64,000 bases of DNA from Escherichia phage vB_EcoM_G29, in sequence record MK327940.1; one strand, 5' to 3'. Of this stretch, positions 2,494-40,376 are shown one piece after another (positions within the stretch are counted from its first letter, which is position 1; each line of letters opens with the position of its first letter). Below the pieces are notes generated by a model. It did no database searches. It was not told the origin of the DNA and saw nothing but the letters and a program-made list of their open reading frames with translations. Both the position numbers and the translations under genes were made by a program.

Positions 2494-3498
2494 TTAACTT
2501 ACCAATTCAATCCAAGCCGGACGAAGTACATCTTGTACCATTTTAACTAATTCCTTCTTAATCAAAGAAGGATTATCCGCTTGAGTTAGAGTAATACCTT
2601 CACGAGAAGTTTCTTCCAAAATATCTTGAACCGTTAGTCCCATCACCTTTCCAAAATCTTTTGGACCAATTTCACCAATTTTAGAAATAACGTTATTTAC
2701 TCGGTTCAGTGTAACATAACAAGCTAAAATTCCCAGCAATTTATTATCAGCTTCTGACAACTCAACTTTAGCTTTAATAGGCTTATCAGACTTTTTCTTT
2801 TCACTAAATTTAGAGTTCTTGCATTTGATGGCTACACGATTGCGATTAGGCAGCCAAGAAGGATAACAAGGTTTCAATACATATCCTTCAGCGGTAAATA
2901 CTTCGCCTTTTGCTTCAGCATTCCAAACGCATTTATTTGCATCAACTAATCCAGCATGGTCTACCGTAAAATTATAATCCTGTACGACAGAATCTAAATC
3001 ATTTGGCAATTTAATAAGTTCTTCAAATTTACCACGACCTAAAAGTGGAGCCATTTTAAATTTAAATGTATTACAGAATGATTCCATCATATAATCATCG
3101 ACATAAATTACATCACCACTTTCTGTAGTAACAATAATGTCAAATACATAAAAATCTTTATCACCATAATCGACATTCTTCTGAATGCCAGGTCCGGCGA
3201 ATTCACCAAAGACTTGATAAGATACAACCGCTGAAGTTTCCATAATATCTTGTACTGCTTTAATGGAATCAGCGTAATTCTTCAAAATAATTTCATACCC
3301 AAAGAAATCTTCAGCAGGAAGAATAGGACCAGTTCGTTTAGCACAAGTTACTTTATCACGCTCAATAATCAATGAGAAATTTGTGCCGTGAATCTTTTCA
3401 CGAGCTACCCATTCGCCGCCAGTCAATCCTAAACTGTAAAGTTTTTCAATAAATTTAGAGTTGTAATGATTTTCAAGACTGCTATACTTTTTAAACAT
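2494..3498 (-). CDS. rnlB: RNA ligase 2 (Rnl2)
   Basis: 334-aa ORF; contains the nucleotidyltransferase lysine motif EKIHGTN; length and position match T4 rnlB. Confidence 0.9.
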
Positions 3499-35481: not shown

Positions 35482-37746
35482 TCATAATTTACAGGATGAA
35501 CAATCTTCAGCTTTTGGAGTTTCTATTTCATAATCATCAGTACCAGAACCGTCACGGGTATTATGATAATAGAAATTTTTTCCGCCAAAATACCAGAAAT
35601 ACAAAAGGTCATCAATCATTATTGACATTGGAACCTTGCCTTTAGGGAAGATTTGGGGGTCATAGTATGTATTCGCCGAAGCTGATTGACAAACCCATTT
35701 CAGCATAATAGCTACCTGCGTAAGATAAGGTTTATTACCTTTCTTAGCTAATTTCCATGTATAATCATATAGGTCTATGTTATGTTCAATATTGGGCACG
35801 ACTTGATTAAAGGAACCCTCTTTTGATTCTTTAACAGAGACTGGTCCACGTGGAGGCTCGATACCGTTTGTACTGTTAGAAACTTGGGAAGATGACTCAC
35901 ATGGCATAAGTGCTGATAGTGTGCTATTACGGATGCCAAAGAGCTTAAGGTCTTCCCGCAGCGACGACCAGTCACAAACGTATTTTGGAGCTGCGATTTG
36001 GTCAATCTTTTTATTGTACCAGTCGATAGGTAATTCGCCTCGAGACCAACGAGTGTCTGAATAATATTCGCAAGGTCCTTTTTCTTTGGCGAGCTTAATG
36101 GATGCTTTAATGAGTCCATACTGTAATCTCTCAAATAGTTCATGTGTTAAATCGTTAGCATCTTCATAAGAAGCAAAGTTACTTGCCAGCCAAGCTGCAT
36201 AGTTGGTAACACCTACACCGAGGTTACGACGCTTTTTAGCTTTTTCTGCTTCAGGAACTGGATATCCTTGGTAATCCAAAAGATTATCAAGAGCACGAAC
36301 TTGAACTTCTGCCAATTCATTAATTTTATCTTGGTCTTGCCAGTCAAAATTATCTAGTACGAATGCAGAGAGAGTACACAATCCAATTTCAGCATCAGGA
36401 CTATTCACATCATTTGTTGGAATAGCAATTTCACAGCACAAGTTACTCTGACGAATAGGTGCCTTTTCACGAATAAACGGAGTATAGTTATTCGTATTAT
36501 CAATGAACTGTACATAAATTCTTGCTGTTCCTGAACGTTCAGTCATGAGCAATTCAAATAGTTCACGGGCTTTAATACGCTTTTTACGAATATTAGGGTC
36601 TTTTTCTGCTGCTTCGTATAATTCACGGAAACGGTCTTGGTCTTTAAAATAAGAATAATAAAGCTCTCCACCCATTTCATGCGGACTGAACAAAGTAATG
36701 TAATCGTTCTTTCCGAATCGTTCCATCATCAAATCATTCAGTTGAACACCATAATCCATATGACGAATGCGGTTTTCTTCTACGCCTTTGTTATTTTTCA
36801 AAACGAGAAGATTTTCAACTTCCAAATGCCAAATAGGATAATAAGCAGTAGCAGCGCCGCCACGAATTCCACCCTGTGAACATGATTTAACTGCAGTCTG
36901 AAAATGTTTCCAAAAAGGAATAACACCAGTATGGCGTACTTCACCCATGCCAATCTTAGAACCTTCGGCACGAATCATACCAACGTTAATACCAATTCCA
37001 GCGCGTTTAGAGATATATTCAACAATCGAAGCGGAAGCCTTATTGATAGACTTCAGCGAATCACCTGCCTCAATAACAACACATGAACTAAACTGTCGAG
37101 TCGGAGTACGACAACCAGCCATAATAGGAGTTGGTAATGAAATCTGTCGAGTAGATACTGCTTCATAAAAACGAATAACATGTTTTAATCTATCAACAGG
37201 TTCATCTTGATGCAATGCCATTCCAATAGTCATAAATGCAAACTGCGGAGTTTCATAAATTTGACCAGTGGTTTTATCTTTAACGAGATATTTTTCTTTT
37301 AATTGCATCGCCCCGGAATAAGTAAATTCCATATCCCGTTCGTGCTTAATTTTTGATTCTAAAAATGTAATTTCTTCTGCTGAATATTTTGACAACAATT
37401 CAGGGTCATATTTACCTTCATTTACACAGTAAGAAATATGGTCAATAAATGAACGCGGTTCATACTGCCCATAAACATGCTTACGAAGAGCGAACATTAG
37501 ACAACGTGCAGCTACATATTGATAATCAGGCTCTTCAACCGAAATAGAATTCGCAGCGGCCTTAATGACAATAGTCTGAATATCATCAGTTGTCATTCCA
37601 TCACGGAGATAAGATTTAATATTTTCATATAATTCATAAGGATCTACTGATGTTCCCTCAGCTGCCCAAGATAAAACTTTAATAATTTTTTGTGGGTCAA
37701 AGCTCTGAGAAACACCACTACTTTTGATAACATTAATTAATTGCAT
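35482..37746 (-). CDS. nrdA: Ribonucleotide reductase large subunit NrdA
   Basis: 754-aa ORF with class I RNR active-site region (NLCCEIAIP). Confidence 0.9.
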   Translation of the reverse strand: MQLINVIKSSGVSQSFDPQKIIKVLSWAAEGTSVDPYELYENIKSYLRDGMTTDDIQTIVIKAAANSISVEEPDYQYVAARCLMFALRKHVYGQYEPRSFIDHISYCVNEGKYDPELLSKYSAEEITFLESKIKHERDMEFTYSGAMQLKEKYLVKDKTTGQIYETPQFAFMTIGMALHQDEPVDRLKHVIRFYEAVSTRQISLPTPIMAGCRTPTRQFSSCVVIEAGDSLKSINKASASIVEYISKRAGIGINVGMIRAEGSKIGMGEVRHTGVIPFWKHFQTAVKSCSQGGIRGGAATAYYPIWHLEVENLLVLKNNKGVEENRIRHMDYGVQLNDLMMERFGKNDYITLFSPHEMGGELYYSYFKDQDRFRELYEAAEKDPNIRKKRIKARELFELLMTERSGTARIYVQFIDNTNNYTPFIREKAPIRQSNLCCEIAIPTNDVNSPDAEIGLCTLSAFVLDNFDWQDQDKINELAEVQVRALDNLLDYQGYPVPEAEKAKKRRNLGVGVTNYAAWLASNFASYEDANDLTHELFERLQYGLIKASIKLAKEKGPCEYYSDTRWSRGELPIDWYNKKIDQIAAPKYVCDWSSLREDLKLFGIRNSTLSALMPCESSSQVSNSTNGIEPPRGPVSVKESKEGSFNQVVPNIEHNIDLYDYTWKLAKKGNKPYLTQVAIMLKWVCQSASANTYYDPQIFPKGKVPMSIMIDDLLYFWYFGGKNFYYHNTRDGSGTDDYEIETPKAEDCSSCKL

Positions 37747-38063: not shown

Positions 38064-38280
38064 ATTGTTTTTCCGTTAAAACAGTAATATCGTAGTAACA
38101 GTCAGAAGAAGTTTTAACTGTGGAAATTTTATTATCAAAATACTCACGAGTCATTTTATGAGTATAATATTTTTTGCCATAAATGATAATAGGCTGATTT
38201 GGTCCTGGAACTTCTAGCTCACTTGGATTAGGAAGTGTAAAAAGAACTACACCAGAAGTATCTTTAAATCGTAAAATCAT
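38017..38280 (-). CDS. Hypothetical protein (nrdA.2 position)
   Basis: 87-aa ORF; overlaps the next ORF by 47 nt in another frame, so the start is uncertain. Confidence 0.45.
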
Positions 38281-39137
38281 ATTGCCATTTTCCCTTTAAT
38301 TGCTGGATGCGATTCATAATTTTCAAGGATAAAATCTTTCGGTTTCATGTATTCAGTTAACCAGTAAAGCTGTGTTTCGGTGTCACAATTTCCAAACTCT
38401 ATAGGCCAATCAATTTTAAGTTCACATAGTTCTTTAGGCTCACGACGTAAAATTTCTTTACATTGCTCAGTATGATTCATATAGATGTGAGTATTACCAC
38501 CAGAAAATATCAAATCTCCTGGGATAAGATTACACATCTTAGCCACAATATGCGTCAAGGCAGCGTACGAGGCAATGTTGAATGGCAATCCCAAGAAAAC
38601 ATCTACACTTCTTTGGTACCATTGTAAATCAAGATAACCATTACGCACATTAAACTGATAGAACATATGACAGGGCGGTAATGCCATTTGATTGATTTCA
38701 GCTGGATTCCATGCTGAAACGATTTGACGTCGATCAGTTGGTAATTTTTTAATACGATCAATAGTTTCAACTAATTGATCCACACCGCCGAAATCACGCC
38801 ATTGTTTACCGTATATAGGACCAAGTTCACCACTATGATATCCTAGGTCTTTAGCCTGGTTTTCATAGTTATCGTCCCAAATAGTTTTACCTTGAATAAG
38901 ACTACCATGTGTGCGAAGACGTAAATCATTAACATTGGTAGAACCGGAAATAAACCATAGAAGCTCAGCAATGCATGCATTCCACGCAAGCTTCTTAGTT
39001 GTTACCGCAGGAAAACCTTTAGTTAAATCCCAACGTAATTTAGTACCGAACAAAGCAATTGTTCCTGTGCCTGTTCGGTCATCGGTTTCATAGCCATTTT
39101 CAAAAATGTCTTTAATTAAATCTTGGTATTGTTTCAT
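38277..39137 (-). CDS. td: Thymidylate synthase, uninterrupted
   Basis: 286-aa continuous ORF with active-site region PPCHMFYQF; no intron. Confidence 0.9.
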
Positions 39138-39182
39138 TTAGTACCTTATATAAATTATAATACATTTTATGAAGCTAAATAA

Positions 39183-39530
39183 TCAATACGGTTTAGCATC
39201 AAATTTTCTCTCAATTTCAGGCGTGAAATATAATTCTTTACCGCGTTTGGAAAAGCGACCAATAATATGATAATTATTCTCATCAAATGTGATATTACCA
39301 ATATCCATAGCTTTCAACCAAATATCGATATTTCTATCCAGCTTTATGTCAAAATTCCAATACGGAGAACTATTACCGAAAATACTGCAAGCGGATTCAG
39401 TGAAACAACTGCTATAAATCTTGTCTTTAGGAACTACTAATTGATAGACACCTTTAATAAACTGAGGACCCTGCCACTTTGGCTGTTTCGTGTCTTTTTC
39501 TAATAGAATAGGGTAATAATTAAAATTCAT
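39183..39530 (-). CDS. Hypothetical protein inserted between frd and td
   Basis: 115-aa ORF in a 412-bp interval separating frd from td. Confidence 0.6.
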   Translation of the reverse strand: MNFNYYPILLEKDTKQPKWQGPQFIKGVYQLVVPKDKIYSSCFTESACSIFGNSSPYWNFDIKLDRNIDIWLKAMDIGNITFDENNYHIIGRFSKRGKELYFTPEIERKFDAKPY

Positions 39531-39549
39531 ATTTCCGCCACGCGTTATT

Positions 39550-40376
<827 letters not shown>

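Follow-up and report, generated by a model that had tools for sequence, protein, structure and literature searches.

Introduction

In phage T4 the genes for dihydrofolate reductase (frd) and thymidylate synthase (td) overlap by 4 bp (ATGA), and td is interrupted by an intron of 1017 bp. Small early genes of the T-even phages are often host-takeover or counter-defence factors. The closest described counterpart of the locus analysed here comes from phage T2, whose record AY262132.2 (T2H) annotates a 115-aa protein, Td.1 (ABI48932), between frd and td; in RB32 and RB14 td.1 is designated RB32ORF229c. As a sequence feature td.1 is already known: it has a name in T2 and a PHROG entry, and stands as 'hypothetical' in hundreds of genomes. 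A literature search for td.1 and RB32ORF229c found no paper in the library covered that discusses the gene. Wilson and Edgell (2009; PMC2790892), the one paper there to cite the T2H accession AY262132, treat mobE and nrdB and do not mention it; the td-nrd region is described there as a hotspot of endonuclease insertions.

The DNA studied is a stretch of 64,000 nucleotides from Escherichia phage vB_EcoM_G29 (MK327940.1), referred to as the window, and all coordinates are those of this stretch unless another locus is named.

Organization of the frd-td region

The segment belongs to a Tequatrovirus (T4-like) phage, and bases 38900–39800 are a 100% DNA match to Escherichia phage vB_EcoM_G4500. The minus strand carries nrdA, nrdA.1, nrdA.2, td, td.1, frd, the homologues of frd.1-3 and gene 32. 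The features relevant to this work are the following, with the source of each in brackets.

35482–37746, minus strand: nrdA (ORF list)
38277–39137, minus strand: td, thymidylate synthase, 286 aa, intronless, downstream neighbour of td.1 (ORF list)
39132–39140, minus strand: direct repeat copy 2, TAAATGAAA, across the td start codon (sequence)
39138–39182, minus strand: td.1-td spacer, 45 bp, with a promoter-like element (sigma-70-like match, annotation of phage Lutter)
39183–39530, minus strand: td.1 coding sequence, 115 aa plus stop, ATG start, member of PHROG 1928 (ORF list, T2H match, PHROG, dN/dS, AF2)
39531–39549, minus strand: frd-td.1 spacer, 19 bp, AATAACGCGTGGCGGAAAT, with a weak GGA-type ribosome-binding site (sequence)
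39548–39556, minus strand: direct repeat copy 1, TAAATGAAA, across the frd stop codon (sequence)
39550–40131 (T4-equivalent start), minus strand: frd, dihydrofolate reductase, upstream neighbour of td.1 (ORF list)

The interval from the td start to the frd stop (39138–39549) thus spans 412 bp, made up of the 45-bp spacer, an ORF of 348 bp including its stop codon, which begins MNFNYYPILLEKDTKQPKWQGPQFIKG..., and the 19-bp spacer. This layout is the one given in a first-pass annotation of the window, whose statement that the stop and start codons of T4 frd and td overlap was likewise borne out by the ATGA overlap. The flanking enzymes are close to those of T4, with 97% amino acid identity between the two Frd proteins and 85% between the window Td and spliced T4 Td, and the T4 intron is missing from the window td. 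No paralogue of td.1 was found elsewhere in the window, and an Rfam scan of 38800–39900 returned nothing but two eukaryotic families, both below threshold and attributed to chance.

Two details of the neighbouring genes deserve mention. The frd ORF called mechanically has 202 aa and starts at an in-frame ATG at 40158, overlapping the end of the frd.1 homologue, and the T4-equivalent start (MIKLVFAYS) lies at 40131, with TAATG common to the frd.1 stop and the frd start. Around codon 183 of td (38560–38620) the window reads CTTGGGATTGCCATTCAACATTGCCTCG, whereas T4 has CTTGGGT and CTACCGTTTAATATTGCGTCA on the two sides of its exon junction, and many positions differ. The region of the T4 intron insertion point in td is presumably the I-TevI homing site, and the window td allele might, from these differences, be a poor I-TevI substrate.

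Identity and extent of the Td.1 family

Judged by sequence similarity, the 115-aa ORF is the catalogued gene td.1, a small T-even gene. Its product is 99% identical in amino acids to T2H Td.1, and the T2H locus shows the same placement between frd and td, the same spacers and the same 9-bp repeats, with no difference of substance. The protein matches phrog_1928 at E=1e-35 (residues 4–111 against profile positions 2–125 of 126), and a family HMM, for which it was among the sequences used in building, scores it at 114.7 bits (E=5.8e-35). A tblastn search with Td.1 retrieved homologues in 580 phage records, 362 of them at 90% amino acid identity or more and the other 218, from other genera, below 60%. 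The homology search that the first-pass annotation had proposed has therefore given the protein a named T2 counterpart, a PHROG and a family.

This family is small and does not extend beyond the T4-like phages that infect Enterobacterales. An exhaustive HMMER search over 1.84 billion representative proteins matched Td.1 to no more than 44 clusters (at 50% identity); five of the matches are weak or fragmentary, and all the others are stand-alone proteins of about 95–140 aa. The window Td.1 fits both this size and the pattern Q-x-x-W ... G-x-Y ... G-N ... G-R-F-x-K-x-G ... F-x-P.

The earlier statement that the protein lacks a recognisable domain stands, in agreement with the searches of Pfam and NCBIfam, which gave no matches, and of PHROGs, which gave only phrog_1928. 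A sequence-profile search of the PDB with a 45-sequence alignment returned nothing below E=0.1, so that homology to a characterised protein was found in none of Pfam, NCBIfam or the PDB profiles. A function assignment for td.1 is absent from all the records matched. The labels that td.1 carries in some public records read 'putative homing endonuclease' in the BASEL phages KarlGJung, FriedrichMiescher, AndreasVesalius and WilhelmHis, 'putative glucose-1-phosphate adenylyltransferase' in SF2-1 and BW-1, 'putative dihydrofolate reductase' in IsaacDaniel and 'reductase' in ECO78. None of these labels (endonuclease, adenylyltransferase, DHFR, reductase) is backed by the searches run, and a list of wrong td.1 labels in public records is a by-product of this work.

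Coding status and selection

An ORF of this size could be spurious and lie inside a non-coding spacer, in a genome that is AT-rich and frequently contains short ORFs, and the ribosome-binding site of td.1 is weak. The substitution pattern already refutes this. Rates were calculated for the window, T2H, Killian and the Mosigvirus phages PTK and NHEP29, the informative pairs being those with dS of 0.26–0.99. In these pairs td.1 shows 14–35 synonymous against 1–11 non-synonymous substitutions and a dN/dS of 0.01–0.05, a tighter constraint than that on td (0.05–0.13 in the same pairs). Conservation at the protein level extends down to about 17% identity among 45 family members, with Trp19, Gly91, Lys95 and Gly97 invariant and Gln16, Gly27, Tyr29, Phe93 and Phe102 nearly so, and the fold prediction (see below) is confident. 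A spurious ORF is thus scarcely credible, and td.1 is a genuine, strongly constrained protein-coding gene. It is constrained as tightly as the enzymes that flank it and has no known relatives.

Position of td.1 across Tevenvirinae

Comparison with other genera revealed that the gene keeps its place over long distances. In all loci inspected the family member comes directly after frd. A td.1 homologue lies immediately 3' of frd and 5' of td in Kanagawavirus PEi26, Jiaodavirus Mineola, Roskildevirus Cronus and Gelderlandvirus STML-198, and the same placement was seen in Moonvirus Moon, Winklervirus CHI14, Kagamiyamavirus EcS1 and Mosigvirus PTK, as well as in Enterobacter phage MY742 and Klebsiella phage Biddle. 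Altogether, diverged homologues (27–47% identity) occupy the frd-td position in at least nine Tevenvirinae genera. The distant members of the family, from Proteus, Morganella and Providencia phages and from two metagenome contigs, also adjoin a DHFR gene.

Across genera, identity to the window proteins amounts to 27–47% for Td.1, 46–54% for Frd and 71–81% for Td. The divergence of Td.1 broadly tracks that of Frd, which is the pattern expected from the vertical descent of a small, faster-evolving protein. In most of the loci inspected the reading frames overlap, both between frd and td.1 and between td.1 and the next gene. Overlapping frames in most genomes point to one transcription unit with translational coupling, so that td.1 is almost certainly co-expressed with frd and td as part of the frd-td-nrdA nucleotide-synthesis block.

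The frd-td interval of many genera holds more than one member of the family. A second td.1-family ORF was detected by hmmsearch in eight loci (E=1e-11 to 1e-27); in Cronus this longer paralogue sits between frd and the td.1 homologue. The complete array, frd - td.1 - long paralogue - orf68 - td, exists in Biddle and MY742, where orf68 is an unrelated small ORF described below. These arrangements suggest that td.1 was ancestral at the frd-td position, and that the alleles found in Tequatrovirus (td.1 only, orf68 only, none) would have arisen by differential deletions of the array; ancestry with differential loss is well supported by the comparison of loci. It may be added that in most genera the family occurs as a tandem of a short form (about 103–113 aa) and a long form (about 115–145 aa, with an N-terminal insertion), and that the short form alone is kept in Tequatrovirus, Mosigvirus and Jiaodavirus.

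Alleles of the junction and origin of the T4 arrangement

Tequatrovirus phages differ from one another at the frd-td junction, where three alleles occur: td.1, orf68 and none. They account for about 68%, 26% and 6% of the records, respectively (GenBank/RefSeq duplicates counted). A contiguous junction of the T4 type is present in only 32 phage records, several of which are T4 itself, against about 360 with td.1. The first-pass annotation had regarded the ORF as a gene inserted at a junction that is otherwise tight, and this view is overturned by td.1 being the majority allele. Its description of the junction as variable was correct as far as the three alleles and the absence of td.1 from T4 are concerned, but not in the sense of an insertion site, given the homologues at the same place in at least nine genera. 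It had also pointed to the opposite possibility, a conserved core gene found at this junction in T4 and its relatives; the ORF is indeed conserved in the relatives and absent in T4.

A closer inspection of the borders of td.1 showed that in the window, T2H, Killian and Lutter the gene is enclosed by the two copies of a direct repeat of 9 bp, which are perfect and lie 416–420 bp apart (416 bp in the window). T4 contains exactly one copy of TAAATGAAA, and its junction corresponds to the td.1 allele collapsed onto this single copy. In 280 of 20,000 shuffles the two 46-nt neighbourhoods had a word of at least 9 nt in common. The T4 flanks resemble those of the window, with 206 of 211 nt identical at the 3' end of frd and 180 of 200 nt at the 5' end of td; what distinguishes the T4 junction is the missing 416 bp between the TAAATGAAA copies. 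In this scenario the T4 junction would stem from a deletion of 416 bp, by recombination or slippage between the two copies, and we infer with good support that it is the product of such a deletion.

In formal terms, an insertion with target duplication would leave the same repeat footprint as a deletion, and polymorphisms in the flanks do not discriminate, T4 being about equally close to flanks of the td.1 type and of the orf68 type. The direction follows from the majority status of td.1 together with its homologues at the same place across genera, which mark T4 as the derived, deleted state. The synteny comparison that had been suggested for this junction therefore points away from an ancestral tight junction in T4. 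This corrects a bias due to the choice of T4 as reference phage: at the frd-td locus T4 is the exception.

The third allele, orf68 (MSNKLKVKDV...), an ORF of 68 aa unrelated to td.1, is found between frd and td in ACG-C40, pSs-1, fPS-65, Shinka and other Tequatrovirus phages, about 135 records in all.

1721–1924 of the ACG-C40 locus: orf68
3148–3351 and 3173–3373 in two further loci: orf68

Its ends are tightly joined to both neighbours, through an ATGA common with the frd stop and a TAATG with the td start. Klebsiella phage Biddle (81%) and Enterobacter phage MY742 (66%) have the same ORF immediately upstream of td, in addition to the two td.1 paralogues. The three alleles of Tequatrovirus thus resemble products of separate deletions in the full array. 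The ORF itself has no match in Pfam or NCBIfam, and homologues of about 42% were seen in phages of the Phapecoctavirus type, with genomes of about 150 kb. That orf68 might be a remnant of td.1 was ruled out, as it shows neither a match to the td.1 HMM nor DNA similarity. A T4-type junction travelling with the td intron and I-TevI was also considered and ruled out: td.1 and the td intron/I-TevI occur together in 79 records, T6 and RB7 among them. In ACG-C40 the td intron is found together with the orf68 allele.

Exchange between phages is visible as well. The window and T2H differ with a dS of 0.26 in td.1 but of 1.2 in td, and in Mosigvirus NHEP29 a Frd of 58% stands beside a Td.1 of 93% and a Td of 88%. 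Such jumps of dS and identity at gene borders point to frequent recombination here with breakpoints at the borders, and the case of NHEP29 indicates that the td.1-td block was exchanged between genera.

These observations bear on the possibility that td.1 is accessory or anti-defence cargo inserted recently, with the 9-bp repeats as the target duplication. The three alleles, the flanking repeats, the general role of small early T-even genes and the horizontal exchange evident from a near-identical td.1 next to a diverged frd in Mosigvirus would all be in keeping with it. On the other hand, a recent arrival would hardly be the majority allele (about 360 against 32 records) nor have diverged homologues at one position in at least nine genera, with a divergence broadly tracking Frd; the tandem paralogues indicate long residence, and no transposase, integrase or endonuclease is encoded in the 412 bp. 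We consider recently inserted cargo unlikely, and its insertion part is largely refuted by synteny. An anti-defence role is likewise improbable for Td.1, whose very low dN/dS is unlike the fast evolution common among counter-defence genes and whose conservation is deep. The gene is a long-standing resident of the T-even phages and not a new insertion.

Comparison with homing endonucleases

The label given to td.1 in the BASEL collection raises the question of whether it could be a homing endonuclease or the remnant of one. The label is repeated in the four phages named above, and the td-nrd region is a known hotspot for insertion of such genes (PMC2790892). The resemblance to the seg and mob endonuclease genes of T-even phages covers presence/absence polymorphism between conserved genes, an element-rich region and the label in some records. 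As to differences, td.1 lacks a nuclease motif, has at most half the usual size, keeps a fixed position across genera, forms tandem paralogues and shows a very low dN/dS. With a cut-off of E=1, HNH, GIY-YIG, LAGLIDADG and other nuclease families of Pfam match none of the 45 family members, and even with a cut-off of E=10 Pfam gives nothing for the window protein, which has only 115 aa. A catalytic domain or motif of the HNH, GIY-YIG, LAGLIDADG or PD-(D/E)xK type was not recognised in Td.1, its distribution is neither sporadic nor variable in position, and the structural matches reveal no nuclease theme. With strong purifying selection added to this, a homing endonuclease is very improbable.

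Predicted structure and possible function of Td.1

The AlphaFold2 model of Td.1 (13.7 kDa, mostly basic), calculated from the 45-sequence alignment, has a pLDDT of 91.4 and a pTM of 0.85. It consists of strands at residues 6–12, 27–34, 38–40, 48–50 and 62–64, a helix at residues 68–76 and strands at residues 80–82, 86–96 and 99–104. The order of these elements, though only the order and not the coordinates, is that of an OB fold, in which the helix follows strand 3 and precedes strand 4; the model has two further, short strands. The nucleic-acid-binding OB domains (S1, HIN, Teb1/RPA-like and the N-terminal domain of RecO) were compared as close known systems, and significant structural similarity of the model to solved OB folds was not found.

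By chain position, Gln16 and Trp19 follow strand 1, Tyr29 is on strand 2, and the Gly91-Arg-Phe-x-Lys-x-Gly97 segment lies in the hairpin of strands 4 and 5. The corresponding elements of OB folds form the ligand-binding face, and the conserved residues of Td.1 may fall where OB folds bind ligands. Nothing suggests a catalytic role. Td.1 would then be a non-enzymatic beta-barrel with an OB-like order of strands, which would bind nucleic acid or a protein partner early in infection and so modulate nucleotide or DNA metabolism. Such a non-enzymatic OB-like binding protein is offered as a tentative assignment from the model.

A more specific proposal is that Td.1 is a dedicated partner of Frd, of Td or of both, acting as an adaptor or regulator in the T4-type complex of dNTP-synthesising enzymes or tuning the flux of folate and thymidylate. 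The constant placement between frd and td in the lineages examined (Proteus, Morganella and the metagenome contigs included), with mostly overlapping frames, and a purifying selection no weaker than that on the enzymes would agree with this. However, T4 and the phages with the orf68 allele keep a functional-looking frd and td without td.1, and gene order is conserved throughout these genomes anyway, which makes a dedicated partner doubtful. Being absent from T4 and from about one third of the Tequatrovirus records, td.1 is dispensable for lytic growth as such, though it would be useful in nature.

In a related and unlikely variant, Td.1 would have an unrecognised fold, at most a remote relative of the OB fold, and would serve as a specific partner of Frd/Td or as a nucleic-acid-binding regulator of the block. 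If so, the textbook dNTP-synthesis apparatus of T4 would be a reduced version of that in most T-even phages, and in many genera Td.1 and the second tandem paralogue would together make up a module of two subunits. The explanation preferred here, in which an ancestral and constrained td.1, lost by deletion in T4, encodes a binding protein (this last part weakly inferred), is as a whole reasonably probable. The locus is otherwise an ordinary one: T-even phages have many small early genes that, like td.1, are uncharacterised.

Spacers flanking td.1

Mosigvirus NHEP29 has no 19-bp spacer between frd and td.1; its frd stop codon and td.1 start codon overlap in ATGA. Given this coupling, the spacer of Tequatrovirus looks like a secondary insertion. 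The ATGA of NHEP29 is located within GTATATAAATGAATTTT (1495–1510 of its locus), and the coupling is the same as that of frd and td in T4.

The td.1-td spacer contains a sigma-70-like element, TTGATT-18-TATTAT, running from 39186 to 39157 on the minus strand, with its first bases in the region of the td.1 stop. In the promoter scan such sites were no more frequent than in shuffles, which makes the match weak when taken by itself. The record of phage Lutter labels the homologous stretch 'promoter', and the Mosigvirus phages PTK and NHEP29 lack about 32 bp of the spacer (TTAGCTTCATAAAATGTATTATAATTTATATA). This stretch may represent a putative td promoter specific to the Tequatrovirus phages that carry td.1. 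It also holds the sequence AGCTTCA, which by eye resembles the MotA box of T4 middle promoters.
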